A DNA stretch of 64,000 nt from a virus (lineage: Duplodnaviria; Heunggongvirae; Uroviricota; Caudoviricetes): IMG/VR virus record IMGVR_UViG_3300020429_000539, positions 396,263-460,262 of that record; one strand, written 5' to 3'. Numbering within the stretch: position 1 is the stretch's first letter; every line of letters begins with the position of its first letter. The translations under genes were made by a program, and so were the position numbers. Positions 16 to 63,978 of this stretch are shown here, piece after piece. The notes beneath the pieces are model-generated. The model saw only the letters and a list, made by a program, of their open reading frames with translations. It was not told where the DNA came from and searched no databases.

Positions 16-747
16 ATGTATACTCTACACAAAAAATCATGCATGGGTATGAAGGAAGTTGCGACGGACTCAATCGACGGCATCGTGACATCTCCACCGT
101 ATAAGGATGAGGATGGTTATACCGAAGAACTAATGAAAGACTTGGCTAGAAACTGCTACAGAGTTCTCAAGAATGGTAGCTCTTGTTTTGTTAATTTTGG
201 ACAACTTGCTACGGACAAGGGTCGTCCGTTTCGCGTAGCTAATGAGTTTGCTGAGTATTTTGATTGGATAGATACAATCATCTGGGTCAAAAGTAACGAG
301 TGGATGGGAGGCCATTATACACCTGTCAACAGTAAATATCGTATGAACAATATGTATGAATACATATTTCAGTTTGCAAAGGGCAAAGCCGAAATAGACA
401 GGTTGGCGCTGGGTATTCCTTATCTCGATAAGACAAACATCAAGCGATATGGCGCTACCGATACAAAAAGCGGAACAAAGAAAGACCTGCGTTGCGCAGG
501 AAACGTATGGTATGTATCCTATACTACTGTTCAAAACAAAGACCAGAAACCCCATAAAGATATGTTTCCTGAAGAGATTCCGCGAAGATGTCTAAAGCTT
601 ATGAACTTACCGAGGGGTTCGACCATTTTGGACCCGTTTATGGGAAGTGGAACAACGGGAAAAGCAGCAAGAGACATGGGTTACAAGGTAGTGGGATACG
701 AGATAAACGATAAATACTGGACCAAAGAAGCGGACCTATTTGAATGA
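16..747 (+). CDS. Orphan DNA amino-methyltransferase (N4-C/N6-A, beta class)
   Basis: Motif IV TSPPY near the N-terminus, HKDMFPEE, motif I ILDPFMGSGTT near the C-terminus; ends EADLFE. Confidence 0.92.
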   Translation: MYTLHKKSCMGMKEVATDSIDGIVTSPPYKDEDGYTEELMKDLARNCYRVLKNGSSCFVNFGQLATDKGRPFRVANEFAEYFDWIDTIIWVKSNEWMGGHYTPVNSKYRMNNMYEYIFQFAKGKAEIDRLALGIPYLDKTNIKRYGATDTKSGTKKDLRCAGNVWYVSYTTVQNKDQKPHKDMFPEEIPRRCLKLMNLPRGSTILDPFMGSGTTGKAARDMGYKVVGYEINDKYWTKEADLFE

Positions 748-1529
748 GTATAAGTTGGATATATCCTGATGATTGTATTGGTCTTGAGCTTGATGGCGAA
801 GAGCCGTCTCTCATCTATATGGACCCTCCGTATGGACCCAAAAGCGAAGACACTTATTATGGGGTCGGCGATAACTCACATGACTACTTGTCTTACATGC
901 ACGACCGTCTTGCTCACATGCGAGATATTTCAGGAGATTCCTATAACATCGTAGTTCATGTTGATTGGAAGTATGTTCATAATCTCAAGGTCATGATGGA
1001 TAGCATCTTTGGTCGTGATAACTTTAAGAACGATATCATTTGGTGCTTTAGCAATCCATCGACTAACGAAAAATGGTTGCCGCGTAAGCATCAGAATCTT
1101 CTGTGGTATGGCATCGGCGATAACGTGTTCAATCCTATCCGTATTCCTCACAAGACAAAGATGAACGTCGGAGGGAAGAACGCATGGTCGAAAGAGAAGA
1201 TACCTTGGGAAGAGTATGAGAGGAAGGGCAAGCTGCTTGAAGATTGGTGGACAGATATACCGGCTTTATGTCGCAATGAGCCCGAAAAAACAGGATATGC
1301 AACACAGAAGCCATTGGCGTTGATGCGTCGCATCATTAGTTTATGGAGTAATGAAGGCGACACTATCATTGACCCGTTTATGGGCAGTGGCTCGTTGCTT
1401 GAGGCAGGTATTCGTATGGGGCGCAACGTGATAGGGTGCGATATTAGCCCTGATGCAGTAGAGACAGCTAATAGAAGAATCAAGAAGGCAAGCAGAGCAG
1501 ATATCTTCGCCGGGAGTAGCAATGATTAA
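744..1529 (+). CDS. Orphan DNA methyltransferase (N6-A likely, beta class)
   Basis: YMDPPY, YATQKP, IIDPFMGSGS motifs; ATGA overlap with the previous gene. Confidence 0.92.
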   Translation: MSISWIYPDDCIGLELDGEEPSLIYMDPPYGPKSEDTYYGVGDNSHDYLSYMHDRLAHMRDISGDSYNIVVHVDWKYVHNLKVMMDSIFGRDNFKNDIIWCFSNPSTNEKWLPRKHQNLLWYGIGDNVFNPIRIPHKTKMNVGGKNAWSKEKIPWEEYERKGKLLEDWWTDIPALCRNEPEKTGYATQKPLALMRRIISLWSNEGDTIIDPFMGSGSLLEAGIRMGRNVIGCDISPDAVETANRRIKKASRADIFAGSSND

Positions 1530-2322
1530 CAAGATTATGCACGATGACGTTATCGATGGACTCAAGAAGATAGAAGACGACAGCGTAAGTCTTGTATTTA
1601 CTTCTCCGCCCTACAACGTGGACATCAAGTATGGCAATCATGATGATACGATGCCCTATACCGATTATCTTGATTGGCTCAAAGATATATGGTCTGAGTG
1701 TTATCGCGCTCTTCGTCCAGGCGGTCGTCTAGTCATTAATATCGATTCAATGGTCAATCATGAAGAAGACCGTTTTGCAAAGAAGGCTGATGACACGGGT
1801 AAAGAATACTTCCGCCCTATTTACGCCGACCTATGCAGAATCAATGCGGATGTTGGATACAACTTTCGTTGCGATATTGCATGGTATAAGCATCAAGTAG
1901 TTGGCCGCGCAACTGCGTGGGGAAGCTGGATGTCCTGTCAGAATCCGATCGTTCGTCGTAACCATGAATATCTGCTTGTTTGGAACAAAGGCCCCTGGTC
2001 TTTGCCTCCGATTGACCACAAGAGCGACTTGACCAAAGAAGAGTTTGAGCAGTGGACTATGAGCCATTGGTTTATACAGCCCGAAACTCGCAAGCTTGGC
2101 GGTCATCCAGTTCCTTTTCCCGAGGAACTGGCGAGACGAGTTATCAAGCTTTACTCGTATCCTAATGACATAGTTCTTGATCCATTCTCAGGCACAGGAA
2201 CAACTTGTAAAATGGCAAAGGTTCTCAATCGCAGGTATATCGGTATTGACAATCACCGTGCTTCTGTTGAGTATTCGCGTAGGCGAATCAATGCTTCCGT
2301 GGGGTGTTTTGATGGAGTTTGA
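1522..2322 (+). CDS. Orphan DNA amino-methyltransferase (beta class)
   Basis: FTSPPYN, HPVPFPEEL, VLDPFSGTGTT motifs. Confidence 0.92.
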   Translation: MINKIMHDDVIDGLKKIEDDSVSLVFTSPPYNVDIKYGNHDDTMPYTDYLDWLKDIWSECYRALRPGGRLVINIDSMVNHEEDRFAKKADDTGKEYFRPIYADLCRINADVGYNFRCDIAWYKHQVVGRATAWGSWMSCQNPIVRRNHEYLLVWNKGPWSLPPIDHKSDLTKEEFEQWTMSHWFIQPETRKLGGHPVPFPEELARRVIKLYSYPNDIVLDPFSGTGTTCKMAKVLNRRYIGIDNHRASVEYSRRRINASVGCFDGV

Positions 2323-4673: not shown

Positions 4674-5058
4674 GTCTTCTGAGGCCTCTCAACAGGCAAG
4701 AGATTATTTGCTTGATAACTTCAAGTTTGGTTGGCTATTTTCTGCCGACCAGCTAAAAAGTATATCTCCTAACTCCGTAGCTTGGTTGACCGTTATCGGA
4801 ACTCCTGAGATAGATGAACTTTTGAAGGATGAAGATGGCGCATGGATGCATAATCTCGTTGAATATATCAAAACAGAAGAACCTGTTCCAAAAGATGAAA
4901 TAAACGATTACGTAAATAATATCTCAGGTATTATCGCTGAGCGATTTGATCCTGAAAAGTTATTACATGACAGTTTTAAGGTGCTTCGCAACAAGAATAA
5001 ACAAAGGCAGAGAACAACAAGTAATAGCCATAAAAGTAAGATAACTCCATGCAACTGA
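4618..5058 (+). CDS. Hypothetical protein (start uncertain)
   Basis: 146 aa ORF filling the operon. Confidence 0.55.
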   Translation: MKKTQENDKRPSYRTAPFESSEASQQARDYLLDNFKFGWLFSADQLKSISPNSVAWLTVIGTPEIDELLKDEDGAWMHNLVEYIKTEEPVPKDEINDYVNNISGIIAERFDPEKLLHDSFKVLRNKNKQRQRTTSNSHKSKITPCN

Positions 5059-5429
5059 TTTGTAAACAGGTTGTCGTTCATACCTTGGACAGCGAAGACA
5101 TTCGCGATAAAGACCGTGTTCGCGCGGTCTTGTTATGCTTTAAAAAGCAAAGAATGGAGATAACGGCAACGCTCAGGCGATTTGGTTCTAGTCAGAGATA
5201 CAAAATGATCCGCATACTCAAAGTAGATGAGCATACCTGCGACCTTGTATCAGCAGATTCGGACCATACCATGACGATGCGTGCTGTACCGTTTGGTGAT
5301 ATACTCGAAATGTCTGTAACTATTCGTGACCCGATTGCGCCTGATGAACTTGAGAGCCTATCCATGGATGATATCTTTGACTTCGAAAGTGAAATGCCAA
5401 CTCCTGATGCTTCGCCTGACGATAAATAG
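5049..5429 (+). CDS. Hypothetical protein
   Basis: 126 aa ORF directly upstream of dnaE-N; beta-rich core, acidic tail. Confidence 0.6.
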   Translation: MQLICKQVVVHTLDSEDIRDKDRVRAVLLCFKKQRMEITATLRRFGSSQRYKMIRILKVDEHTCDLVSADSDHTMTMRAVPFGDILEMSVTIRDPIAPDELESLSMDDIFDFESEMPTPDASPDDK

Positions 5430-5431
5430 GC

Positions 5432-6826
5432 ATGAAAGCACGAAAGATTACCAACGCTGACTTTGTTCACTTGCATAACCATACCGAGTATTCATCTTTT
5501 GATGGACTAAATAAAGTCAGCGAGTTCCCCAAGGCCGCAGCCGAGAAGGGCTTTAAAGCTCTGGCGATGACCGACCACGGCAATATCGGTGGCGCTTTCA
5601 AATTCATGCGACAGTGTGCTGAAGCAGGCATCAAGCCTATCGTAGGCTGTGAGTTTTATTTGTCCAAAGATAGGCATGTCCATTTTACAAACAAGAAAGA
5701 TAGTCGAGGCAGGATTCTTGAAGAGGGTCAAACTGACGGTCGCAAGGGCAATCGTCATCTCGTCCTGATTGCGAAGAACTGGAAAGGCTATCAGAATCTC
5801 TGTCGCTTGTCTCAGGCGTCTTGGGTCGAAGGATACTATCGCGACCCCCGTATCGACCTCGATTTGCTTTACGAGCATTCTGAGGGACTCATATGCTCTT
5901 CTGCGTGTTTGAGCAGCGTCATCAACGCCAACCTGCTTCATGGGCGATACGACCAGGCGAAGAAGGCAGGCACCATACTCAAGGATATTTTCAAGGACGA
6001 CTTCTATCTCGAAGTCATGTATCATGGTATCGATGCCGAGGGCGCGATCATCTCTGATGTTATTAAGCTTGGTGAGGAACTCGGTTGCAAATGTATCTGC
6101 ACGAACGATTGTCATTATTGTGAGAAGTGCCAGGGCAAGTCTCAGGAACTTTTGATGGCTATGTCTACGTCGCGATGTCTGACGGACCCAAAGCATATTC
6201 ACTTTCCGCATGATGAGTTCTATCTGAAGTCTGCTCAAGAAATGGCAAAAACATTCGGCACGAAGCCTGAGTTGTTGCTGAACACGAATCTTGTAGCAGA
6301 TAAAGTAGATACCGATGATATTATGGATAACCTGGTTGGTAAGATGAGGTTGCCTCGATTCAAGATTCCTGAAGGCTTTCAGACTCCGTATGATTACCTT
6401 GAAAAACTCGCGCTCGACGGAATGAAATCACTCGGATGGGACAAGAGTCAAGAACACGTTGAGCGCCTCAAGATGGAACTGAACGATGTTCGTATTGTGT
6501 GGGAGAACAACCGTTACGACTTCGCGACATACTTCCTTATTGTGCGAGACTACATTCGCGCCTCGCAAGAGAGAGGGATATTGACCGGCTGTGGGCGAGG
6601 CTCGGGCTTCGGCAGTGTGTTATTGAGATGCCTCGGCATTACCCATGGCCCAGACCCTCTTGCTTACGGTTTGCTTTGGGAACGATTCTTGGGCTTCGAT
6701 GATAAGTATTTCGTAACGGAAAGAGATTTTGGCATCGAAGAAGAAGACAAGGTTGTTGAAGTCGAAGTTGATGAAGAGGTCGCACGAGAAGTAGAAGATG
6801 ACCTTGGCGGTGTAGATAGATACTAA
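5432..6826 (+). CDS. dnaE: DNA polymerase III alpha, N-terminal part (PHP domain and start of palm)
   Basis: FVHLHNHTEYS.FDG, ALAMTDHGN, GCEFY, HLVLIAKN..GYQNL, TNDCHY, GRGS, LLWERFL, then an acidic tail and stop. Confidence 0.95.
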   Translation: MKARKITNADFVHLHNHTEYSSFDGLNKVSEFPKAAAEKGFKALAMTDHGNIGGAFKFMRQCAEAGIKPIVGCEFYLSKDRHVHFTNKKDSRGRILEEGQTDGRKGNRHLVLIAKNWKGYQNLCRLSQASWVEGYYRDPRIDLDLLYEHSEGLICSSACLSSVINANLLHGRYDQAKKAGTILKDIFKDDFYLEVMYHGIDAEGAIISDVIKLGEELGCKCICTNDCHYCEKCQGKSQELLMAMSTSRCLTDPKHIHFPHDEFYLKSAQEMAKTFGTKPELLLNTNLVADKVDTDDIMDNLVGKMRLPRFKIPEGFQTPYDYLEKLALDGMKSLGWDKSQEHVERLKMELNDVRIVWENNRYDFATYFLIVRDYIRASQERGILTGCGRGSGFGSVLLRCLGITHGPDPLAYGLLWERFLGFDDKYFVTERDFGIEEEDKVVEVEVDEEVAREVEDDLGGVDRY

Positions 6827-6840
6827 GCTAGCAGGTAGAT

Positions 6841-8820
6841 ATGGAAATAGAGGAAATCAAACAGTCTATATTATCCCTCGTTGGAGATGACGAGAACCTT
6901 GATAAGATCAAGGAAGAGATTGATACAATGGCTTCCGTAGAGGGTCTTGATGGGAAGCCAATACTGTTCAAGTTCTATGATGTATACAAAAAGCACGGCC
7001 ATAAGACGGGCGAAGAGAACAAGATAAACTCATGGACTGCTGTTGCTTTGGGGATGACCTCTAAGGAACCTGACGGCGAGTTTCTTCCTAAGCGCCGTGC
7101 TTTTGCTCGTGCAGGTTTTCCCGATATCGATTCGGACTTCGACTACGCTCGCAGGCAGGAAGTATACGACTACATCATCGATAAATACGGAAGAGAAAAC
7201 GTCGGTAACATCGGAACATATGGCGCGTTGAAGATGAAAAGCTTCGTCCGTCGTGCGTTTCGGGCGATTGACCCTGACAACGTGTGGCAGCCCACGCCGA
7301 AGGGTAAAGAACAGTGGATAACTCATTCTCGACTCAAGGGCGATGAGATTGTCAAGTCTCTGCCTACGCAGTTTGGTGCTGTTCTAAAGGTCAAACATGA
7401 TGGAGAAGAGCATGCAATCAAAACAACGGAAGACGCATACAGATATTGCAGGAACTTTGCTAGTTATATCGACAAATATCCTGACCTCCTCACTCACTCT
7501 AGGAATATTGAGGGACTTCTCTCTACATTTGGAGTACACGCTGCCGGTATCGTTATATCTGATTGTCCTCTAGATGAGATTGCTCCGCTTCGACAAACAA
7601 GTATCATTAAAGATACGCTCGACGGCGGCGAAAAAGTCTTTGAGTATGCAACTCAGTTTGAAAACGCAGACCTTGAGGAAATGGGTCTAATCAAGTTCGA
7701 TATTCTCGCTCTTAGCACCTTGACTGTTATGTCAAAGTGTATCCAACTTATTGAAGAGAACTGCGGCTTCAAGCTCGATATTACAGAGATACCGCTTGAT
7801 GACGAGAAGACGTTCGACTTATACAGGCAGGGTAAACTTGTTGGTGTGTTCCAGTGCGAAGAACCTGGTATGCAGCGGACTATGCAGCAGATGGGCGTTG
7901 ACCGCTTTGACGATATCATGGCAGGCGTAGCTCTTTATCGCCCTGGTCCAATGGAGAGTATACCGAGCTATTGCGCTCGCAAGCATGGTTCTGAGAGGGT
8001 TGAATACTTCCATGAATCTATCGAACCATTCGTAAAGCCCTATCTAGAGAGAACCTATGGACTGCTCGTTTATCAGGAGCAGATTATGCAGATTTGTAAC
8101 TCGCTTGCAGGTTTCTCTATCTCTGATGGTTACGTCATTATCAAGGCTATTGGTAAGAAGAAAGAGAAGCTGCTTGTTAAATATCGCGCTCAGTTTATTG
8201 ACGGCTGCGTGAGCAATGGCATTAGCAAGGGTCTTGCCACTGATTACTGGGACAAGTTTATTACGCCATTCGCCTTGTATGGCTTCAATGCTTCTCACTC
8301 GTGTTGTTATGGGTTCTTGTCATATCAGACGGCTTACCTCAAGGCAAACTTTCCAGAAGAGTTTATGACGGCATATTTGAACGTCGAACTTGACCGTGCA
8401 AAGCATGAGAAGGTTCAGCATCTCGAACAAGAGTGCAAGGCTATGGGAATCGAGATACTTCGCCGAAGTATAAATAGCGCTAACTGGGACTACGAGATTG
8501 TTCAGAAGAAAGGCAACGGCGTCCAAGTTTCGCAGATTCAGCCCGCGATTAGGTGCAAGGCTTTGCCTTCTCATGCGGCTAAGAATATCTTGGAAAATAG
8601 ACCTTACAAAGACATGCGGGACTTCGCGTTTAGAACAGATTCAAAACAGGTTGATACAAAAGCGGTTGAAGCTCTTGCTCTGGCAAACTTCTTTGCCCCG
8701 CACGGAAAGACAGTTGATAACACGCCTCCATCAGAGCGCGTGAAGAAGTTCTCGATTCTTCGAGAAGACAGGAAGAAGGCCTCTCGAAAAGGGGTCGTAT
8801 CGCAAGACCTATTTAGCTAG
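6841..8820 (+). CDS. dnaE: DNA polymerase III alpha, C-terminal part (catalytic palm, thumb, fingers)
   Basis: FPDIDSDF, HAAGIVIS, GLIKFDILAL, LYRPGPM, YQEQIMQI, YGFNASHS, YLKANFP; ends QDLFS. Confidence 0.95.
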   Translation: MEIEEIKQSILSLVGDDENLDKIKEEIDTMASVEGLDGKPILFKFYDVYKKHGHKTGEENKINSWTAVALGMTSKEPDGEFLPKRRAFARAGFPDIDSDFDYARRQEVYDYIIDKYGRENVGNIGTYGALKMKSFVRRAFRAIDPDNVWQPTPKGKEQWITHSRLKGDEIVKSLPTQFGAVLKVKHDGEEHAIKTTEDAYRYCRNFASYIDKYPDLLTHSRNIEGLLSTFGVHAAGIVISDCPLDEIAPLRQTSIIKDTLDGGEKVFEYATQFENADLEEMGLIKFDILALSTLTVMSKCIQLIEENCGFKLDITEIPLDDEKTFDLYRQGKLVGVFQCEEPGMQRTMQQMGVDRFDDIMAGVALYRPGPMESIPSYCARKHGSERVEYFHESIEPFVKPYLERTYGLLVYQEQIMQICNSLAGFSISDGYVIIKAIGKKKEKLLVKYRAQFIDGCVSNGISKGLATDYWDKFITPFALYGFNASHSCCYGFLSYQTAYLKANFPEEFMTAYLNVELDRAKHEKVQHLEQECKAMGIEILRRSINSANWDYEIVQKKGNGVQVSQIQPAIRCKALPSHAAKNILENRPYKDMRDFAFRTDSKQVDTKAVEALALANFFAPHGKTVDNTPPSERVKKFSILREDRKKASRKGVVSQDLFS

Positions 8821-8831
8821 GAGAAAACACG

Positions 8832-9149
8832 ATGAGCGATAAAGAAGCAGCACCGAGGCAGTCACGTATCCGCAAGGCGATTACTCGTAAGTATAATCTG
8901 GGTAACTATGAGAACATAGATGTCGTTGTTGATCAAGAACATACTATTGAATGGTCAAGTCTTGACGAGTTTATGAAGAAGTCCGCAAATATTACAAAAC
9001 TGGTAAACCGTGACTTTATGGATACTATTTCTCTCGTAGCTGAAGAACTGAGTCTTGAAGAAAAGAAGGCGTTTGTCAATGAATATGGTCCTGCCAAGTC
9101 AAATAGTGAACTGGCTGGGAAGGAAACTGACTACGATTCGCTGGATTAA
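8832..9149 (+). CDS. Phage hypothetical protein (NLGNYE motif)
   Basis: AGGAG SD; RKYNLGNYENI resembles a motif in small phage replication-module proteins. Confidence 0.7.
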   Translation: MSDKEAAPRQSRIRKAITRKYNLGNYENIDVVVDQEHTIEWSSLDEFMKKSANITKLVNRDFMDTISLVAEELSLEEKKAFVNEYGPAKSNSELAGKETDYDSLD

Positions 9150-9164
9150 TAAGGTAGATGTAGC

Positions 9165-10319
9165 ATGTCCAAAAGCAAGGCACTAGAAGCTCTAGACGAT
9201 ATATTTGGCGTTGTCCAAGATGGCAGCAATATCGCCAAGCAGGATAGCGAAGAATCGCATGATTCTAGCTATGCAGATGCAGTAACAGATGATGATGCGT
9301 CCTTTGAGGATAAGGCTGATTTCGTCAAGCAATCTCTTGGAACCTCTGATGAGGTTCAGGTGGAGTATGGCGATAAGCCAGATGATGCCGAGCAAGAACC
9401 CTCTTTAGAAAGCGAGGCCGACCGTGAAGGACAAGCACCCTGTCAGGAAGAAGAGTCAAACGTTGTCTCCAAGAGCCCTGTTCCATCCGAAACCGTTGAA
9501 CCCGCTTCAACTGAACAAGTGGAGCAAGGTGCAGAGGCCGACAGTTCGACAAATGAGTCCCGAGATGAGAAAGAGCATGATATGGAAGTTCGGCCCGACG
9601 ATAGCGACGTATCGTCATCTAAAGAAGAGGTGAAAACTTCTCCCAAGAAAAAGCAGACAATAGATGAGCTTGAAGCAAACGGCTGGCTCGTGACTTGTCC
9701 TTCTCCGATGTGGCAAGAGTTTTACGACCGCAAGATTTCCGCTCTACAGCGGTATGTCGCGGGTCGGGAGATTCCGTTTGGTAAGTTTTACAAAGAACTC
9801 AAAACGGCTTACGTGGATATCCGTGTTAGCATGAGCGACCATAATGCTATTGCAGAAAAGATGCAAGAGATTCAGCAGTGTCGTGACCGTGTTACACAGA
9901 TTCGCGCACAGGTTAATTCGCAGTTTTATCTTTGGAAGCGGCTTGTCCCGTTGTTTGAGGGTCTTGTAGCTATGGTCAAGTATGAAAAGCCCGCTGCAAA
10001 GCAAGAAGGCGTCATTTATGATCGCATGCACGACATGATCGAATACTTTAGTAAACTAGAGACAATGCATGACACAAGCAAAGATATTCTTGCCAATCTT
10101 GATGCTGCTTATGACTCGCTGAGTAGACAGGTTACCATGTCAATGCCTCAGAAGTCGATTGAGCGTCATGAGGGTGGTTCTGGTAGCGTCCAGAGCCCCA
10201 AACTATCTGACTTTGATAGCATTGAAAATAAGCCTCAAAAAGGAGTGAATACGTCATCTCCAAAAGGCCAAAAGTCGATAGATAAAAAGACGAATGGAGC
10301 AGTAGAAATAGACTGGTAA
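9165..10319 (+). CDS. Hypothetical protein, acidic disordered N-half and coiled-coil C-half
   Basis: 384 aa; about 160 aa D/E/S-rich region then heptad-rich helices; directly upstream of ssb-recA. Confidence 0.75.
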   Translation: MSKSKALEALDDIFGVVQDGSNIAKQDSEESHDSSYADAVTDDDASFEDKADFVKQSLGTSDEVQVEYGDKPDDAEQEPSLESEADREGQAPCQEEESNVVSKSPVPSETVEPASTEQVEQGAEADSSTNESRDEKEHDMEVRPDDSDVSSSKEEVKTSPKKKQTIDELEANGWLVTCPSPMWQEFYDRKISALQRYVAGREIPFGKFYKELKTAYVDIRVSMSDHNAIAEKMQEIQQCRDRVTQIRAQVNSQFYLWKRLVPLFEGLVAMVKYEKPAAKQEGVIYDRMHDMIEYFSKLETMHDTSKDILANLDAAYDSLSRQVTMSMPQKSIERHEGGSGSVQSPKLSDFDSIENKPQKGVNTSSPKGQKSIDKKTNGAVEIDW

Positions 10320-10494: not shown

Positions 10495-11151
10495 ATGGCA
10501 AACGTAGTATCTTGGGGTGATCGTGAGAAGAATAGCAAGAAGAACCGCAGCGGAAATGATTTCCTCAGGCTCAAGCCTGGCGAGTACCAGATTCGCTGCA
10601 TTGGCCGCCCGGTCAAGTTCTATCGCTATTATGTAGACCAGCCTGCTGGCTCTGAACGACCATTCCTCTCCGCAATAACGTCGGACCCCGAAGAGTGCGT
10701 CATTCGCAATGTTTACAATCAGGAGCCTGCTTGCCGCTACGCTCTGAACGTAATCAACCGCGAGTCTGGCGAGCTTCAGATTCTTGAGATGCCTCAGACC
10801 ATTTTCAATCAGATTGCTGATTGGGCCGAGGAATGGGAGGTTGCTCCCGGCGGTCCCGAAGGCTGCGACTTCAAGATTAAGGTTCAGCGAGAGGGTAACA
10901 ACCCCCGCAACACCAAATACAAGGTAATCCCTCTCAAGCAGACTCCGTTCTCCGATGAGGAAGCAGAGTATCTGAAGGATGATGGCAAGGGACTTCACCC
11001 ATTGCTCGATATCTTCCGTGCGACTCCGCAGGACAAGATCGAGGAGGCCCTTGGTCTCAAGGCTCCCTCTGGTGACAGTGGCAGTAGCTCGAACGAGACG
11101 GTATCCGCCGGTTCCGGCAAGGATGCGTCTGACGACGACTTCCCCTTCTAA
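10495..11151 (+). CDS. ssb: Single-stranded DNA-binding protein (phage gp32-like type)
   Basis: FLRLKPGEYQIR...RYALNVINR...DFKIKVQREG...TKYKV pattern; acidic tail DDDFPF; strong SD; adjacent to recA. Confidence 0.8.
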   Translation: MANVVSWGDREKNSKKNRSGNDFLRLKPGEYQIRCIGRPVKFYRYYVDQPAGSERPFLSAITSDPEECVIRNVYNQEPACRYALNVINRESGELQILEMPQTIFNQIADWAEEWEVAPGGPEGCDFKIKVQREGNNPRNTKYKVIPLKQTPFSDEEAEYLKDDGKGLHPLLDIFRATPQDKIEEALGLKAPSGDSGSSSNETVSAGSGKDASDDDFPF

Positions 11152-11239: not shown

Positions 11240-12481
11240 ATGGCGAAAAACAAGAAAGCCGCCCTTCAGAACTTGAAGGGTTTTGAGTGGGGCGGATATG
11301 AGAGCAAAACTCTTATCCCAACGGGTCATGCTGAGCTTGACTACTACATTGCCCGTGGTCTTATGGAAGACGAAGAGTTCGGGAAGTTCGATGAAAGCAA
11401 AGTCGGTGGACTTCCTCTCGGTTGTATCTGCATGGTCTATGGCGGTCCTGGTGGCGGTAAATCATCTTTGGCTTATCGTATTTGTGGTTACGCTCAACGG
11501 ATGGGCCTGACTCCCGTTTGGTTCGATGTTGAAAACTCATTCAGCGAAGGCCTATCCAAGATCAATGGTGTTGACCTCTCGAAGATTGGTCGCATGCGTA
11601 TGTATGACAAGGATAACCCCGAAGATGTTTTCTACGCAGAACAGATTTTGGATTCGGTTGCTGACACAATCAAGGCCGGTGCTGATGTAATTGTGATTGA
11701 CTCGATTGCTGCTCTTGTTACTAAGGCTGAGCTTGAGAACTCTGCTGAGAAAGACACGATGGCTTCTTTGGCTCGTGTTCTTGGCAAGACAATACCCGCA
11801 ATCAATTCTTTGGCTGCCGCGAATAACTGTTTGGTTATTGCTATCAATCAGTTACGAGAAAAACCCGGCGTGAGCTTCGGTAATCCCGAGGGGACCAAGG
11901 GTGGTAACACGCTTCGCCACCAGTCTTCGATTATCCTCAAGGTTAATAAGCTCAGCAGCAAGGATTCGTTGATATATGTTGAGGGTGACGATGGTGAAGA
12001 TGAACTTATCGCTGGCTCAGCGAACGTATGGATTGAGAAGAACCGCTTTTCGATGCCACACAAAGCCGGTATTAATGTTCCTGTTTACTACAAGCCATAC
12101 TTTCCAGATATTGAAGAGGTTATCTTTAACACTGGGCGGCAGGTTCGTGTCATAAACAAGCGGAAGAGCGTGTATTCTTGGGGAGATATCAAAGTCGAAG
12201 GCCGGCGCGAGTTCATTGAAGCGCTGTCCGAAATACCAAACATGGATGACTTGATTGAGGAAATCAAGGTGGCAGCCGAAGAGCGTTCAACACCTTTGCC
12301 TCCAGAAATATTGAACATAGAAGCCCATCAGAGGTTTGAGAAGGGCTCTGAAGACGACACCGCCGAGGAAGCCGAAAAGCCAAAGCGCAAGAGACGCACA
12401 AAGCGTAAAGCCGCAGAACCAGATAAGAGCAATTTGGAAGCAGTTACTATACCTGCCGCCGAAGAGCAACCTGATCTATGA
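11240..12481 (+). CDS. recA: RecA/UvsX recombinase
   Basis: IPTG..ELD, GGLPLG, Walker A YGGPGGGKSS, VIVIDSIAAL, INQLREKPGVSFGNPE..KGG..L, KNR. Confidence 0.95.
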   Translation: MAKNKKAALQNLKGFEWGGYESKTLIPTGHAELDYYIARGLMEDEEFGKFDESKVGGLPLGCICMVYGGPGGGKSSLAYRICGYAQRMGLTPVWFDVENSFSEGLSKINGVDLSKIGRMRMYDKDNPEDVFYAEQILDSVADTIKAGADVIVIDSIAALVTKAELENSAEKDTMASLARVLGKTIPAINSLAAANNCLVIAINQLREKPGVSFGNPEGTKGGNTLRHQSSIILKVNKLSSKDSLIYVEGDDGEDELIAGSANVWIEKNRFSMPHKAGINVPVYYKPYFPDIEEVIFNTGRQVRVINKRKSVYSWGDIKVEGRREFIEALSEIPNMDDLIEEIKVAAEERSTPLPPEILNIEAHQRFEKGSEDDTAEEAEKPKRKRRTKRKAAEPDKSNLEAVTIPAAEEQPDL

Positions 12482-13233
12482 TTACAAAGTTTACCGAAGT
12501 AGAACGAGCCGAAATATGCGATTTGGCTAATGAAACTCTTCTCAAAGAGACGACCGAGGATACTCTTGAGGCGCTCAAATATCTCACAGATGTCCGTGGT
12601 ATCTCATTGGAGGTTTTGAAGAAGTTCAGGTTCGGTTACATTCCTAAGCGTGTCGGGCATGATTGGTCTGAAAGGATCATCATGCCGTTATACGACTCTC
12701 ATGATAATCTTATCGTCCTGACAAGCCGAAAGTTTCGCACGACGGACCATAAGCAGCGTCCTCATCTTCATGAGCAGTTTGATAAGAAGCGTTTTTTGTA
12801 TGGCATTCAGGCCGCAAAGAGAAGCATTCTTAACTGGAACGCGGTTGTTCTTGTTGAGGGGCAGTTCGATACGTGTCGATTGCATACAAATGGCTTGATC
12901 AATACAGTTGGAGTTCTTGGCAGTGCCTTTACTTTTGACCATGTATGTCAGCTTAGAAGGTATTGTTCTAACTTCTATCTTGCGTTTGATCGAGACAAGT
13001 CCGGATGGCAAAATATAATTCGAGCCATGAGGATGTATGACGAAAAAAGTCTCGCAACTTTCGATGTCAACTTTATTCCTGTTAGATTGCCGCAAGGCAT
13101 CAAAGACCCGGACGACTTCATCAGCAACCATGGCGTGAAAGCTTTTAATCGCTTACTCAAAGAGTCGAAAGAGCTAGCCAGTAGTTACAAAGAAAGAGAA
13201 TGGCATGGCATTACCACAGAAACAGCCGCCTGA
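12478..13233 (+). CDS. dnaG: DnaG-type primase catalytic core (no N-terminal zinc-binding domain)
   Basis: YL..VRGIS, RIIMP, VVLVEGQFD, AFDRDKSG, KDPDDF Toprim motifs. Confidence 0.9.
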   Translation: MITKFTEVERAEICDLANETLLKETTEDTLEALKYLTDVRGISLEVLKKFRFGYIPKRVGHDWSERIIMPLYDSHDNLIVLTSRKFRTTDHKQRPHLHEQFDKKRFLYGIQAAKRSILNWNAVVLVEGQFDTCRLHTNGLINTVGVLGSAFTFDHVCQLRRYCSNFYLAFDRDKSGWQNIIRAMRMYDEKSLATFDVNFIPVRLPQGIKDPDDFISNHGVKAFNRLLKESKELASSYKEREWHGITTETAA

Positions 13234-14197
13234 AGTAGTCAATCTTATCAATCTTGTCAACACTCATCTGAAGTGGAAGAATCTTAATGGACCGCCCAGG
13301 GGTTATGAGGTTTATCACCCATCTGCCTTCGGTAGCTGCCTGCGACAGATGCAGTATCAGCGATACGCTGAGCGAGGCCTTATCGAGGGAGAGCCGGCGA
13401 AACCTGACCCTCGTATGTGCCGCATCTGGGAAACAGGTCATATTATTCAGACCCGTTGGGAGCAATACTTCATTGACATGGGTGTTCTTCGAGGTTATTG
13501 GGCCTGCCGCAACCCTTTGTGTCGCGAATATGATGATGAAGGCAAGCATGTAGGTCAGTCCAAGGATGAACCCCTTGAGAGGCCTCGTGTTCACGGGCGC
13601 GATAACAAGATTGGTATTTTCAAGCCAGATAAATGTAACTGTGGCTCTGACAAGTTTGATTATCAAGAAATCTCTGTTGTTGACAAAGAGCTAAACTTTC
13701 ATGGGCACGCTGATATCATTCTCGATTTCTCGAACTTCGATGCATCCGTCTACAAGACAGGCAATGCCGTTCGAATGCTATTCAAAGAGAACGAGCTACC
13801 GCAGAAGCCAATTGTTGTAGATATGAAGACAATCAACTCGTTCAAGTTCAAGAAGCTTGGCGCGTTGCCACATTTTCACTACAGGGTTCAGCTAACTATC
13901 TACACACACATTCTTGATTTGCAGTATGGCGTTTTGATTTACGAGAACAAAGACAACTGCGATACGAAGATATATCAGGTTCCTCGCAATGAAGCGATGT
14001 GGAAGAAGATTATCGAACAAGCAAACGTTATGTCTGAAATGGTGGAAGAGAAAAAACTTCCCCCGCCGCGCCCTACTTCTAAAGAGTCAATGGATTGTGG
14101 TTATTGTGATTTTCGGTCGATATGTCACTCATCAGCCGTGTGGAATGACCCTCATCTGCGTGAGAAAAGGAGGAAGTTCTACGGCGATTTCCGTTGA
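13205..14197 (+). CDS. Cas4-like PD-(D/E)xK exonuclease
   Basis: HPSAFGSC.RQ, GHADII, VVDMKT, QL.IY, C-terminal CGYCDFRSIC Fe-S motif; insert carrying extra Cys. Confidence 0.85.
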   Translation: MALPQKQPPEVVNLINLVNTHLKWKNLNGPPRGYEVYHPSAFGSCLRQMQYQRYAERGLIEGEPAKPDPRMCRIWETGHIIQTRWEQYFIDMGVLRGYWACRNPLCREYDDEGKHVGQSKDEPLERPRVHGRDNKIGIFKPDKCNCGSDKFDYQEISVVDKELNFHGHADIILDFSNFDASVYKTGNAVRMLFKENELPQKPIVVDMKTINSFKFKKLGALPHFHYRVQLTIYTHILDLQYGVLIYENKDNCDTKIYQVPRNEAMWKKIIEQANVMSEMVEEKKLPPPRPTSKESMDCGYCDFRSICHSSAVWNDPHLREKRRKFYGDFR

Positions 14198-14208
14198 AGG
14201 AGAATGAG

Positions 14209-14535
14209 ATGACACAGATCAATGATGACCCTACTTTGCTGAAGGTTCGTGGGGAAAGCCGTTTTGGAGATTCCGAGGCAGACAGAGAGGCCAGCCGCAA
14301 GGATTATGTCAAGAAGCTTTCAGGAGCTATTTTGACAGTTATTGGAAAGCATGGTTCGGCAAAGCTCAAAGTAGTTGGTGCGCCTTCTCTTAGCAATGCT
14401 ACAAAGGCAGCAATCATCGCCAAAGGCGAAGGCATGAAGAAAGGTCTCGACCTGGTTATAGAGCCGAGCTTTGATAACGCAGAGTTTGATGGCAGCACGA
14501 AGACTGCTATTGTTTTGAAAGTAGTACCAAGATAA
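14209..14535 (+). CDS. spoVS: SpoVS-family protein
   Basis: LKV...LSGAI...VGAPSLSNATKAAIIAKG...L.IEPSF...DG..KTAIVL aligns with Bacillus SpoVS (GAGALNQAVKA.AIARG...PAF...DGEERTAI). Confidence 0.85.
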   Translation: MTQINDDPTLLKVRGESRFGDSEADREASRKDYVKKLSGAILTVIGKHGSAKLKVVGAPSLSNATKAAIIAKGEGMKKGLDLVIEPSFDNAEFDGSTKTAIVLKVVPR

Positions 14536-52198: not shown

Positions 52199-52888
52199 AT
52201 GTCCTGTCTTGAACTTGCCAAAAACATTGTTGTAGCAGGATATCCAAGATCAGGTACAAGCTGGCTAACCCGCTTGATCGCAGACTCTCTGCGATGCCCC
52301 ATCAACTCATACTATAACGGCAACAGGTTATGCTATAAGAATTCAGATGGCTTTGCTAATGATGTAAACCAGTTGGCTAGTTGTGTCCGTATAGATTATG
52401 CTCTGATGAAAACTCATTGCCATCCTCAAGTTGTGTTTACTGAAAACTCTGTTTTTGAAGCTAGTCGAGAACTAACAGTATTTATACACAGAGACCCTCT
52501 TGATGTGCTGGTATCTTGCATGCATTACTATAACACATCATTTGAAGATATGCTTCATAAAATGCAGCATGGTTACAGAGAAGTTTCAGGTTTTGATTAT
52601 ATCAGATATAGAAAAGACTGGTTATCCGAAAAGGTCATAGCAACTACTTATGAGAAGCTTTTGCAAAAAACAGACTGGGAGTTGCTTGCAATCATTCACA
52701 CTTTAGGATTTGTTGAAACTACGCTTGATGATGTTCAGAATGCTATTGAGCAACAGAGCTTTGCTTTTAAGAAAGCTTCAGGTATCAATGCCAACCATTA
52801 CCGAAAAGGACAGATAGGTTCTTATGTTGATGAGTTGTCAACAGAGCAAATCAATCGTGCTAGATGTTTTCTAGGTAAATATTCATGA
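52199..52888 (+). CDS. PAPS-dependent sulfotransferase
   Basis: GYPRSGTSW (5'-PSB), KTH, RDPLDVLVS (3'-PB), YEKL, RKG.IG. Confidence 0.9.
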   Translation: MSCLELAKNIVVAGYPRSGTSWLTRLIADSLRCPINSYYNGNRLCYKNSDGFANDVNQLASCVRIDYALMKTHCHPQVVFTENSVFEASRELTVFIHRDPLDVLVSCMHYYNTSFEDMLHKMQHGYREVSGFDYIRYRKDWLSEKVIATTYEKLLQKTDWELLAIIHTLGFVETTLDDVQNAIEQQSFAFKKASGINANHYRKGQIGSYVDELSTEQINRARCFLGKYS

Positions 52889-60072: not shown

Positions 60073-60728
60073 TGACCCTAGTTTTAGCTATCTCTGGAAA
60101 GAAGCAGAGCGGCAAAACAACCTGGGTCAATCGCTTTGAAGAGATGTATAAAGGTCATGGTTGGGATGTCCGTTCGTATTCATTTGCAGATCCGTTGAAA
60201 GAATTTCTAATCAACTCAATGGGCCTTGCGTATAGTCAGTGTCATGGCACTGATGAAGAGAAAAACTCTCCAACTATTTATCGTTGGGAAACTTTGCCTG
60301 AAAATATACGCGCAGTCAATGGGAATAAAAGCGGATTGATGTCGGGTCGAGAACTGATGCAGGTATTCGGCACGGATGTTATGAGACAGATGTTTGATGA
60401 TTGTATTTGGGTTAATGCGACATTCCGTTCTATTCGACGGGATAATCCAGACATAGCTCTCATTCCTGATACCCGTTTTCCTTCGGAGTTGCGAGCGATA
60501 TATGCGAATAACGGATATGTTATTCGTCTCACACGCAACGTATACATGCAAGACCGTCACCCTAGTGAAACAGCTTTGGATGATTGGAATTGGACCGAAG
60601 AACCCTCTACGAGTAGCAACTCGTTGTTAGTGCCTGATGGTATGGGCATAGAAGAAACGTGGAAATACACGGGAGCCTTTATTGACCGATTGTTGGTCAT
60701 GCACGGGCTTACCAAGCAGAAGGTATGA
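60072..60728 (+). CDS. Deoxynucleoside monophosphate kinase (T4 gp1-like)
   Basis: ISGKKQSGKTT, SFADPLKE, RELMQVFGTDVMR, IWVN, DTRFP.E, HPSETALD. Confidence 0.88.
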   Translation: MTLVLAISGKKQSGKTTWVNRFEEMYKGHGWDVRSYSFADPLKEFLINSMGLAYSQCHGTDEEKNSPTIYRWETLPENIRAVNGNKSGLMSGRELMQVFGTDVMRQMFDDCIWVNATFRSIRRDNPDIALIPDTRFPSELRAIYANNGYVIRLTRNVYMQDRHPSETALDDWNWTEEPSTSSNSLLVPDGMGIEETWKYTGAFIDRLLVMHGLTKQKV

Positions 60729-60729
60729 C

Positions 60730-61908
60730 ATGAGTAAAGACGCATTCGCCAGAAAGTACCGCCCTAAGAAGCTTGCAGACCTAGTGGGCCAAGAGCATGT
60801 GGTCAAGGTGCTACTGAACTCGCTGAAACAAGACGACTACCATCACGCCTACATCTTTGCGGGTAAGTTTGGTTGTGGCAAAACATCAACTGCTCGCATT
60901 TTTGCGGCTGCCGTCAATAATCCAGGTGGAGCCTCTGCTGAGCCTGATCTTGACTCAGAGCTTGTCAAGAAAATCTTCAATGGCAAGCATCCTGATATCA
61001 AAGAGATCGACGCGGCAGCCAGTGGTAGCATCGATGGCATCCGCGACCTCAAAGAGCAAATTAAGTATGCTCCGATGGAGTGCAAGTATCGCTTCGTCAT
61101 CCTTGACGAGGCCCACAGATTGAGCGGCGCGGCGGCAGAAGCCGCATTGAAGATGATCGAGGAGCCTCCATCAAATGTCATCTTCATTCTTTGCACAACT
61201 GACCCGCAGAAGCTTAAGGACACGATTCATAGTCGCTGCCTGCCTTTGCGATTCAATGCCTTATCTTGGAATCAGTCGTTTCAGCATCTTTGCAAAGTTG
61301 CTGATGCAGAGAAAATTGACTACGAAGAAGCTGCGCTGAAGATTGCAGCACGCAAGAGCAAGGGCTCTGCACGTAATGCGTTGCAGAACCTACAAATGTT
61401 GATCACGTTTGCCGGTGAGGGAAATAAGATCACAACTGAGATTGCTCAACAAGCTCTGTCGGCTATCGATGAGAACTTTTACTTCCATTTGGTCGATGCT
61501 ATAGTGAAACCTGACGCTGGAGAAGCCATGCGTATCGTTGACAAGTTGCTTGCTGACGGACGCGATGTCGGGGAAGTCTTGGATGGTCTCGTTGGACATC
61601 TAAGAAACTTGCTAGTTATTACAACGGCCCCTTCAACTCAGGGTTTGATATACCTGACAGATGATGAGCAGAAACGTTACGTGCATCAAAGAAACAGCCT
61701 TCCGAATGGTCTTGCAGCAGCATTCATTATTGAAGCTCTGGAGAACTTGGCAGAGGCTTCGCGGAGTATTCAGCTAAACCTGAATCCTCAAGTGATGCTT
61801 GAAGGCTTTGTCGTAAAGACAATCATGAGCGCTGCGACTCTGAGGCGAAGGGACACTTCACGGAGTCAGAATACGAATGCCTCAACCCAACCGCAAAAAG
61901 CGGGGTGA
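60730..61908 (+). CDS. dnaX: DNA polymerase III clamp loader gamma/tau (short, gamma-like)
   Basis: ARKYRP..L.DLVGQEHV, HAYIFAG..G.GKTS.AR, EIDAA, ILDEAH.L, LK.IEEPP, TI.SRC. Confidence 0.95.
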   Translation: MSKDAFARKYRPKKLADLVGQEHVVKVLLNSLKQDDYHHAYIFAGKFGCGKTSTARIFAAAVNNPGGASAEPDLDSELVKKIFNGKHPDIKEIDAAASGSIDGIRDLKEQIKYAPMECKYRFVILDEAHRLSGAAAEAALKMIEEPPSNVIFILCTTDPQKLKDTIHSRCLPLRFNALSWNQSFQHLCKVADAEKIDYEEAALKIAARKSKGSARNALQNLQMLITFAGEGNKITTEIAQQALSAIDENFYFHLVDAIVKPDAGEAMRIVDKLLADGRDVGEVLDGLVGHLRNLLVITTAPSTQGLIYLTDDEQKRYVHQRNSLPNGLAAAFIIEALENLAEASRSIQLNLNPQVMLEGFVVKTIMSAATLRRRDTSRSQNTNASTQPQKAG

Positions 61909-62671: not shown

Positions 62672-62682
62672 GGAGTACATTG

Positions 62683-63978
62683 ATGAAGTTTAGCGTTCAA
62701 GTGAAAGATTTCGCGAGAGGCTTAGAGCCTGTTATTTCTGTCGCGGTGAAAGGCGTTACCAAAGAATACGAGAACGCTTTCTTCGCCACGCTGATTGTTG
62801 ACGAAAATGGCATCACGGGTGTTGCAGACGGCGGCAAGGTCAGTATCTATGCCGATATTACCAACTCTCGTTTTGACAAGCTGAACTTCAAACATGAAGT
62901 CAGCGGTATTGCTACTGTTAAAGCTGCTGATTTGAAAGCCGTGCTTGCCTCGATTGATGAGAATGAAATCGTCAATGTCGAGATAACTGGTAATGACGAT
63001 GAGGGTCGTGAGCTAATGTTTACGCTTGAGTCGGACCCTGAGCAGTTCCAGACGTTGCCGGTTAACTCCGAGAACATACCTCGTGACCGTTACATCGATG
63101 ATTACATGGAGGCTGTAAGCGACGATGATGGTCTTCAGATTCGTCGTGACCTCTTTGCTTCGGGCGCAAGCGCGTTGACATTTACCCATGGCTTTGAGGA
63201 GTATCGTCCTGCTTATCTCTATTGGGTCATTCGCGCGTCTAAGGATGAGCTACGCTTTGCCTCTGGTAGCGGTGGTCGATTTGCGGTTCTCGAATACATT
63301 GGTCATGACCTTTCGAACGCGACCGACACCACAACCCTTGTTGTTCCCAATGAGCAGACGCAGGTTTTCGTGGACATTGTTGGCAAGGTCAATGATGACA
63401 TGATTACCCTACATAAAACAGACAGGCACCTTGTTCTCAAGACGAACAACTTTATCGCGGTTGCTTCAAACTATGACCCTGAAATTCAGTGGCCTGATCT
63501 TGATGTCTTCCTCAAGAGAGAGAACAAACTGCGACTGACCACGCGAGTTGGAAGCTGGCCGAATGCGGTCAAGGGCCTTGCGGCGACTTATAACGAAGAT
63601 GCCAAGAAGACCTTTGACTATCATGTCGCCAACCTTGATATTGATCTGGCTGGCAATATCATTACCGCTAAGACGACAGGCAGCACGATGCGATCGAAGC
63701 GTAAGATCAACATCGAAGATGCTGAAGTCAAGGATAGCGATTCGATGAGTGCTGTCAATCTCAACTTCCTTTCGAAGTATCTCTTTGAGGCATTCAAGAA
63801 TGCGTCTGATGACGAGCATGTGCAGATTGAGATTGAAAATGAACTGAAGCCTGTTGTTATCCGCTACCACGCCGGTCAGCAGGTTGGTGAGGCTGACGAT
63901 TTCCGCAAGCCCAACGAGTCGTTTGGCGTGGATGAGCGATTTACTGTGTTCTTCGCGACCTTTACCGAAGACGACTAA
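62683..63978 (+). CDS. dnaN: DNA polymerase III beta sliding clamp (divergent, long)
   Basis: MKFSV...F...L..V, G..TV.A..L, LRFASGSGGRFA (cf. ATDGHRL), WPD, F..KYL.EA, I......KPVVI; next to dnaX. Confidence 0.8.
   Translation: MKFSVQVKDFARGLEPVISVAVKGVTKEYENAFFATLIVDENGITGVADGGKVSIYADITNSRFDKLNFKHEVSGIATVKAADLKAVLASIDENEIVNVEITGNDDEGRELMFTLESDPEQFQTLPVNSENIPRDRYIDDYMEAVSDDDGLQIRRDLFASGASALTFTHGFEEYRPAYLYWVIRASKDELRFASGSGGRFAVLEYIGHDLSNATDTTTLVVPNEQTQVFVDIVGKVNDDMITLHKTDRHLVLKTNNFIAVASNYDPEIQWPDLDVFLKRENKLRLTTRVGSWPNAVKGLAATYNEDAKKTFDYHVANLDIDLAGNIITAKTTGSTMRSKRKINIEDAEVKDSDSMSAVNLNFLSKYLFEAFKNASDDEHVQIEIENELKPVVIRYHAGQQVGEADDFRKPNESFGVDERFTVFFATFTEDD

Follow-up and report, generated by a model that had tools for sequence, protein, structure and literature searches.

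Two neighbouring genes encode the halves of a DnaE

This analysis concerns a C-family DNA polymerase, DnaE, that is encoded by two neighbouring genes in a virus of the Caudoviricetes (IMG/VR record IMGVR_UViG_3300020429_000539). The stretch studied, called the window below, comprises 64,000 nucleotides (positions 396,263 to 460,262 of the record). The record is a single 488,051-bp virus sequence, classed as complete and carrying direct terminal repeats, and the sequencing runs in which the DnaE stretch was found are labelled marine metagenome or bear a coded organism name.

Gene 1 (5432..6826, + strand, 464 aa, protein P0001; stop codon TAA at 6824-6826) encodes the N-terminal half of DnaE: a PHP domain, the nucleotide-binding palm subdomain, a connector strand and an acidic tail. 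Gene 2 (6841..8820, + strand, 659 aa, protein P0002) encodes the C-terminal half, in which an N-terminal module is followed by R90, D95 and D97 (7123-7131), D287 (7699-7701), the fingers and a helix-hairpin-helix (HhH) domain. The two genes are in different frames and are separated by 14 nt (6827..6840, +), a place where relatives carry inserted cargo; a purine-rich CAGGT run precedes the gene-2 ATG and is a possible ribosome-binding site. By profile matching, gene 1 contains PHP at residues 13-198 and positions 2-97 of the 260 positions of the DnaE NTPase profile, and gene 2 covers positions 69-260 of the same profile, then fingers and HhH. PHROG 405 likewise spans both genes, gene 1 matching as far as profile position 435 and gene 2 resuming the match at 439, so that PHP, palm, fingers and HhH follow each other in DnaE order across the pair. 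OB and C-terminal domains were not detected in gene 2, which ends 37 residues past the HhH match; the locus thus holds two open reading frames (ORFs) and not the single-polypeptide DnaE1 with its OB and C-terminal domains.

The catalytic motifs are complete, but distributed over two chains. In gene 1, alignment to Mycobacterium tuberculosis DnaE1 (7pu7) identified the nine PHP metal-ligand positions H15, H17, D24, H49, E74, H109, C159, D226 and H228 (5474..6115, +). These five His, three Asp/Glu and one Cys, the ligand set of a proofreading PHP, are each invariant in 90/90 aligned rows, and on this basis the domain is predicted to be an active proofreading exonuclease. The functional copy of the GS palm subdomain (6452..6691, +) comprises a helix with E349, the GRGS loop (6593-6604) and WERFL (6677-6691, with R418); residues G388, R389, G390, S391, W416, R418 and F419 are invariant in 90/90 rows. 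It is followed by the connector (residues 421-433; 6692..6730, +), a predicted strand pairing with gene-2 residues 82-86, and by an acidic linker that ends in a conserved C-terminal motif, GGVDRY (6731..6823, +; motif at 6785-6823). In gene 2, R-AGF-PDIDSD corresponds to residues 90-99 (7108-7137) and KFDIL, with the third aspartate, to residues 285-289. The GS motif, the ERF arginine, PDxD and the third aspartate are each invariant in 90 or 89 aligned rows. The original prediction for this DNA, made from the sequence alone, had proposed an active site divided over two genes, and all of its motif coordinates hold.

We take R396 and D555 of Escherichia coli DnaE to have the roles assigned to them there, in triphosphate binding and catalysis, respectively. 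The GRGS loop of the E. coli enzyme binds the incoming nucleotide through G363, S364, R362 and R390 (PMC4374717); for the third aspartate, the same paper names a residue other than D555. Gene 2 ends with a clamp-binding-like motif, S-Q-D-L-F (8800..8814, +), whose last positions match the consensus given in PMC3919608 and whose position 1 does not; [DSN][LIM]F stands at the very end of 111 of 120 gene-2 homologues.

The break is genuine and carries no intein

Three DNA runs contain the whole 3.5-kb stretch unchanged; they may be the source of the record, and two of them may represent the same data set. Positions 6665-6977 are also covered, unchanged, by a contig from a further run, one that bears no mark as a possible source. 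Since the junction is identical in that run, and since the same break occurs in 24 other loci (see below), the break between the two genes is not an artefact.

As originally claimed, no hallmark of an intein was found. The intein profile PF14890 had no match in the whole genome, and a search of positions 5000-9500 against Rfam returned a single sub-threshold, unrelated match and no intron model. The break shows neither the initial Cys/Ser of an N-intein nor the H-N before C/S/T of a C-intein. Among 120 gene-2 homologues, none has a Cys at position 2, and H-N/Q-C/S/T occurs within the first 100 residues of three. A positive control is provided by relatives L094, L101, L102 and L103, in which a second break is flanked by clear split-intein ends, as read by eye. 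This second break (L094:7015-9493, L101:7545-11398, L102:7187-10456, L103:6678-11409) lies just before the HAAG motif and makes these DnaEs three-gene enzymes; the intein N-end was seen in all four and the C-end is shown for three. An intein-associated break further down the gene was also noticed in L010.

Both the gene-1 tail and the gene-2 module display the third-position excess typical of protein under selection. Two contigs from RNA libraries run colinearly across the stop codon of gene 1 (6694-6908 and 6593-6902); they come from one sample, may be DNA, and are weak evidence. They cover just 12/30 and 10/30 bins, and expression level is not readable from them. An intron or a recoding site would imply an RNA element or a fixed frame relation between the halves, and neither was found: gaps and frames vary among relatives.

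Gene 2 begins with a degenerate copy of the GS palm subdomain

The first 85 residues of gene 2 (6841..7095, +) form a degenerate duplicate of the GS palm subdomain, as indicated by HHalign and by fold comparison. The GRGS loop is replaced by G-x-x-N-x-x-N-S. Residues E26, N60, P77 and R85 are invariant, and R85, R86 and R90 of gene 2 are nearly or fully so. Against a profile of 63 canonical DnaE GS subdomains, the module was aligned with an HHalign probability of 89.5% (E 2e-6, 65 columns) and a score of 34.7, compared with at most 15.5 in 68 controls (1 reversed, 40 shuffled, 27 other windows). With the inserts of 12 single-chain relatives as query (see below), the probability against the same profile was 95.8%. 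An AlphaFold model of residues 1-85, made without templates (pLDDT 86), was compared with 48,161 PDB representatives. The top seven matches were all C-family polymerases, on the subdomain just before the catalytic aspartates; the best was 5LEW residues 316-419 (Z 7.4, rmsd 2.4, 79 residues), a Z below 8 being middling by the tool's own guidance, and the first unrelated row had Z 4.0. Because all seven top rows agree on one subdomain, we conclude that the module is a decayed copy of it.

The original prediction had seen in the start of gene 2 a decayed copy of the end of gene 1. The resemblance stands when the module is set against the canonical DnaE profile and fold, but not against gene 1 directly. 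BLASTP between module and gene 1 gave E 11, which is not significant; within-family HMM cross-searches between the module and the gene-1 copy found 0/120 in each direction; and the self-alignment proposed as a check, HHalign of the gene-1 copy against the module, reached a probability of 0.4-0.6%, no better than controls and without significance. Single sequences are also poorly recognised: the canonical HMM scored at least 10 bits on just 4/120 gene-2 N-termini, and 1.8 bits on P0002. Foldseek with the module model gave no match at E 0.001 in PDB (M. tuberculosis DnaE1 came first, E 2.3) or in BFVD, and PHROGs contains no family for the module alone. The nearest clusters to the module in the ESM Atlas are proteins of 111-133 aa, and two of three among the matches listed are named DnaE NTPase-domain proteins.

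The split is conserved among relatives

We collected the best 120 gene-1 proteins, query included (searched lengths 255-812), and the best 120 gene-2 proteins (lengths 362-1154). GRGS and xRF are present in 120/120 gene-1 proteins, with a downstream PDxD in 0/120; conversely, PDxD lies within the first 130 residues of 120/120 gene-2 proteins, and GRGS in none. More than 100 protein clusters were listed for each half. Some database proteins may be contig-end fragments, and genomic context therefore matters.

With the gene-1 alignment as query, 31 related IMG/VR loci were found (L088/L089 and L108/L109 being near-copies); the same search with the single protein as query found nothing. The DnaE is split in 24 of the 31 loci, fused with a module of about 100 aa in four, fused without the module in one, and in two the sequence ends before gene 2. 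A search of phage genomes for the same split point, suggested at the outset, was therefore rewarded. In a wider alignment scan, 64 of the 75 loci examined among the matches listed had canonical spacing, that is, were ordinary phage DnaEs. A GTDB scan gave six loci, with the module detected in none (three canonical, two outside the motif patterns, one short match), and it therefore offers no host lead. In INPHARED, the closest gene-1 matches were less than 39% identical and no cultured member was found.

The gap between the halves ranges from -8 to 2,936 nt (median 1,254, some gene-2 starts being the first possible codon), and all three frame offsets are present (7, 10 and 8 of 25, window included). 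The gap is a hotspot for cargo. Fifty-one ORFs were found in it, of which two duplicates were excluded; the 49 scanned comprise six Dam-type methylases, two ClpP, one other methyltransferase, one deaminase, one weak zinc finger and 38 matching no family. Whole clpP genes lie between the halves at L100:6453-7100 and L105:6394-7014, and Dam-type methylase genes in L081-L086 and L102. Endonuclease Pfam families matched 0/49 of these ORFs, 38 of which match no family at all, and the 14-nt gap of the window holds no ORF.

Single-chain relatives carry the module as an insertion

Searches for longer proteins retrieved single chains with the module between ERFL and PDxD, at a GRGS-to-PDxD distance of 136-169 residues compared to 39 in canonical DnaE. 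Fused forms with the module amount to 4/31 loci plus P0242 and 11 more proteins; close kin among the insert-bearing chains are P0242, P0247-P0249, L096, L106 and L108. Distant single-chain DnaEs with an insert at the same site are P0280, P0282, P0290, P0298, P0305, P0328 and P0380; the distant insert-bearing chains lie on longest contigs of 9-253 kb. Since single-chain relatives carry the module as an insertion, the module appears to be older than the split, a point that the original prediction had missed.

A third kind of chain lacks the module. In L010 (L010/L097), L011 and P0250, the GRGS-to-PDxD distance is 49-56 residues and the copy retained is that of gene 1. Trees were built on the core after the break, as quick trees with a single-matrix model. 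In the first, database proteins were labelled 'split' without genomic context; in the second, 19 context-checked split rows were kept, and 26 split and 10 canonical rows dropped. L010, L011 and P0250 were sister to the insert-bearing P0242 within the clade in both (SH-aLRT 98 and 96). This position inside the clade points to a secondary loss of the module. As the module-less chains keep the gene-1 copy, it is this copy that would work, the module being dispensable in a single chain; and as one single-chain lineage lost the module, it would not be needed for catalysis as such.

Fused and split rows were interleaved in the tree. For the 19 context-checked rows, the hypothesis that the split arose once was not rejected (p-AU 0.66), nor was it demonstrated. 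A module of this type also stands at the start of three further proteins, P0316, P0353 and P0362; these group outside the main clade, a hint, from proteins only, of a second independent split.

Predicted complex of the two halves

A two-chain model was made of gene-1 residues 296-464 with gene-2 residues 1-530. Its ipSAE was 0.79, against 0.00 for the best control; the runs share at least 84% of contacts, and the partner pLDDT was 75. The ipSAE mark applied is reached by 116/157 solved and 2/215 mismatched pairs, counts that hold only roughly with our own alignments. At the level of structure prediction, this agrees with the heterodimer first proposed, with the module in its interface. In the model, gene-1 residues 383-415 lie on the palm and fingers of gene 2, and residues 424-433 of gene 1 are paired with the module. 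The best-defined pairs are specific to the family, namely gene-1 residues 424-426 with gene-2 residues 82-86 (the stalk), and D432/F433 with N60-I62 (the latch), D432 and N60 each being invariant. The stalk and latch contacts have no counterpart in the solved C-family chains compared.

The AlphaFold model of the fused P0242 has a mean pLDDT of 92.3 and matches DnaE folds with Z up to 47.5 (range 41-48). In it, strands 417-421 and 531-535 flank the insert, and a linker at 431-441 (pLDDT below 50) coincides with the place where split relatives break. The break thus sits in a linker of the insert that is predicted to be flexible.

The acidic tail of gene 1 had been suggested as a docking surface. 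This was not borne out: in 28 of 120 homologues the chain ends no more than 10 residues from the DF motif, and the model, which covers gene-2 residues 1-530, has no confident contact at gene-1 residues 436-464. The conserved clasp is predicted instead to be the short stretch right after ERFL (residues 421-433). Gene-1 proteins otherwise end in a GGxDRY motif (85/120) or in a long acidic tail without it (7/120). The GGVDRY motif is unique in the genome and absent from the fused junctions inspected; the tail that bears it likely binds something, but is optional.

A probable composite active site and its alternatives

We consider it probable that the two genes specify a non-covalent, two-chain DnaE replicase whose active site would be composite, and which would be assembled from both products with no intein. 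The proofreading PHP domain and the nucleotide-binding subdomain with GRGS and R418 would come from gene 1, and R90, D95, D97, D287, the fingers, HhH and the clamp-binding-like end from gene 2. As to history, an ancestor may have acquired an additional GS subdomain through an insertion of about 100 aa between ERFL and PDxD, an insertion that the single-chain carriers described above do possess. The inserted copy would have lost its GRGS loop and become a side domain on a predicted two-stranded stalk, and the gene would then have broken in the linker of this insertion. One stalk strand with the invariant D432 would have remained on chain 1, and the other strand with the module on chain 2, the halves being held, as the model predicts, by the normal palm contacts plus stalk and latch. 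The gap would afterwards have gathered the unrelated cargo genes now seen there in relatives. A more detailed version seems doubtful, if worth stating: that the dead loop of the module (G-x-x-N-x-x-N-S) grips the Asp-Phe latch of the other chain and so enabled a cut through the active site, that the proofreading and nucleotide-binding half is detachable and docks through its GGVDRY tail on a replisome protein, and that the polymerase is switched by subunit assembly.

The replicative role agrees with one DnaE pair being found, with family profiles, among the 3,644 ORFs of the genome, and with the nearby genes for DnaB, primase, single-strand DNA-binding protein and clamp loader. PolA and PolB profiles had no match in the whole genome (the controls were positive in 10/14 and 5/14 genomes, respectively; PolX and PolY were not searched for). 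Several observations weigh against the two-chain enzyme with its composite site. A divergent third polymerase could evade the PolA and PolB profiles. The canonical part of the predicted interface is weak evidence, because the products of any such split gene are apt to pass the complex test through their likeness to solved single-chain DnaE. In the P0242 model, the module itself is modelled at a pLDDT of just 42-80, and the RNA data consist of sparse contigs from one sample. Lastly, the module retains the subdomain fold and aligns unbroken into the PDxD of canonical DnaE, and gene 2 could therefore fold the palm alone.

This last point leads to another reading, in which gene 2 alone is the polymerase, the module filling the GS slot, and gene 1 is a separate, epsilon-like proofreader that uses its palm piece for docking. 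The fold comparison and the near or full invariance of R85, R86 and R90 fit with it, as does the fact that cultured actinophages encode the PHP domain as a gene of its own. We nevertheless regard it as quite improbable: the module lacks GRGS in 120/120 proteins whereas gene 1 keeps GRGS and R418 invariant, single chains that lost one copy lost the module and not the gene-1 copy, and the model places gene-1 residues 383-415 on the gene-2 palm and fingers. Were the halves instead joined covalently, by RNA splicing, by ribosomal bypass or frameshifting, or by an unrecognised trans-splicing element, then the gap of just 14 nt, the single-chain relatives and the split inteins at other sites in the family would be readily understood. 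Such joining would however have to operate across gaps of up to 2.9 kb holding whole cargo genes and in all three frame offsets, on a tail and a module that both evolve as protein, without a recognisable intein profile or intron model and with intein-end motifs nearly absent from gene-2 starts; the RNA-library contigs that run colinearly over the stop, even if from one sample and possibly DNA, point the same way. It is very improbable indeed.

A different origin of the same enzyme, in which the module was captured from a free-standing gene for a GS subdomain, resembling the N-terminal unit of the minimal split Pol III of group 2.2 jumbo phages, or in which the fused forms arose when a split ancestor was joined again, is unlikely, yet has more in its favour: the module matches canonical DnaE profiles better than it matches the copy in gene 1, its nearest ESM Atlas clusters are short proteins, and fused and split rows interleave. 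On the other hand, an insert at the identical position is present in distant single chains outside the clade (P0280, P0290, P0298, P0305, P0328 and P0380), a single origin of the split was not rejected, and the weak match to gene 1 can be accounted for by divergence alone. This alternative concerns history, and is independent of the two-chain mechanism. As for an error of assembly or sequencing, or a decaying pseudogene, the genome is indeed metagenomic and uncultured, and three of the runs that carry it may be its source; the identical junction in a run not marked as source, the break in 24 other loci and in more than 100 listed clusters per half, and the invariance of catalytic and metal-binding residues leave this explanation a virtually negligible probability. 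The non-covalent two-chain polymerase remains the reading that we favour.

Genomic context

Pfam and PHROG scans placed the DnaE pair among replication and recombination genes: a single-strand DNA-binding protein (SSB), RecA, a DnaG-like primase core, UvrD, topoisomerase I, a DnaX-like clamp loader and a weak clamp candidate, with DnaB just upstream of the window. SSB (10495..11151, +; profile matches) has an acidic DDDFPF end, the primase core (12478..13233, +) rests on a Pfam match, and the clamp-loader ATPase (60682..61908, +) on Pfam and PHROG matches. The last is followed by a sigma-factor-like ORF (61877-62671) and then by a 432-aa ORF (62680..63978, +), which is possibly a divergent phage-encoded sliding clamp; its single, weak match is to phrog_947 (E 1.6e-5, profile positions 2-352 of 368). 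Beta-clamp Pfam profiles had no match anywhere in the genome, and this ORF also had no PDB sequence match.

Two genes past gene 2, a 384-aa ORF (9165-10319, +) with a long acidic, low-complexity N-terminal half and a helical-looking C-terminal half matched no Pfam or PHROG family. A SpoVS-family protein (14194-14535, +; Pfam E 2.8e-14) is found within the replication and recombination cluster. At the start of the window (16-2322, +), three tandem ORFs of 243, 261 and 266 aa with DPPY/SPPY and DPFxGSG motifs appear to be N4/N6 DNA methyltransferase-like. From 19356 to 54558 (+), about 35 kb are occupied by closely packed ORFs of 150-430 aa, the last being a carbamoyltransferase (52885-54558); the block, of which the carbamoyltransferase alone was scanned, is possibly a large DNA or glycan modification cluster. 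A promoter and terminator scan stayed at chance level, and no tRNA was found in the window.

Relation to known split enzymes

The nearest published case is the minimal Pol III alpha of group 2.2 jumbo phages (Iyer et al. 2021, PMC7824862). It is split into two proteins, an N-terminal one that binds NTP and a C-terminal one that binds Mg2+ and DNA, and the two are proposed to come together as a single enzyme. The boundary is apparently the same and no intein is mentioned, the comparison being with the paper's wording and not with sequences. That enzyme is minimal, without other Pol III domains, and its halves lie in distant genes beside a family B replicase. The DnaE described here is in contrast full-size, with intact PHP, fingers and HhH, is encoded by neighbouring genes, is the sole polymerase found, and has a duplicate at the break. 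With single-chain DnaE1 (M. tuberculosis 5LEW/7PU7, Thermus aquaticus 2HPI; PMC5636811) it shares the domain order, the nine PHP ligands, the GS motif, PDxD and the third aspartate, but it is made of two chains, has an insertion of about 100 aa in the palm, and ends after HhH.

The best experimental precedent for the composite-site mechanism is NrdA-a/NrdA-b of Aeromonas phage Aeh1, an essential phage enzyme cut between active-site residues and functional without splicing, with tails that matter for assembly (Crona et al. 2010, PMC3045599). It is a ribonucleotide reductase, and the tails derive from the insertion of the homing endonuclease that cut it; in the phage DnaE, the predicted interface piece duplicates a subdomain of the enzyme itself, and endonuclease families matched none of the 49 cargo ORFs of relatives. 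The split-intein DnaE of cyanobacteria and the 'fractured' dnaE of phages likewise occupy two genes, between which another gene sometimes lies (Dassa et al. 2009, PMC2677866), but they are rejoined by protein trans-splicing, whereas the present break has no intein. The cultured actinophages Chivey, Ajin, Tedro and Suzy (L119-L122, GenBank) have a DnaE annotated as two genes side by side, in one case separated by a small gene, and no intein family matched the six actinophage DnaE halves scanned. Their cut falls between PHP and polymerase, so that the GS motif and PDxD, 40 residues apart, are on one chain and the polymerase site is whole. These gene pairs offer an accessible system in which to study PHP action in trans. 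Polymerases in two pieces are known elsewhere: gp43 is split in some T4-like phages, and the PolB of Methanothermobacter has two subunits. We regard the two-chain DnaE as a further form of split enzyme, not as a system of a new kind.

No description of this family was found in a literature search that included the available text of bacterial surveys (PMC3919608, PMC12926913); supplements and most subscription papers lay outside the search, and absence from print is not established. Bacterial genome surveys set DnaE fragments aside as likely errors (PMC3919608), and caution is in order, as such halves are prone to be mis-annotated as fragments or pseudogenes.

Implications

The break indicates where the DnaE palm tolerates being cut, a position that could be used for split-polymerase tools and that lets the role of the nucleotide-binding subdomain be probed apart from that of the metal-binding one. 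Because fused, split and trimmed natural versions coexist, the route from insertion to fission is directly testable. To our knowledge, replicative C-family polymerases have been described as single chains or as intein-rejoined chains; a broad group of uncultured giant phages appears to rely for its replication on an active site to which two proteins contribute.

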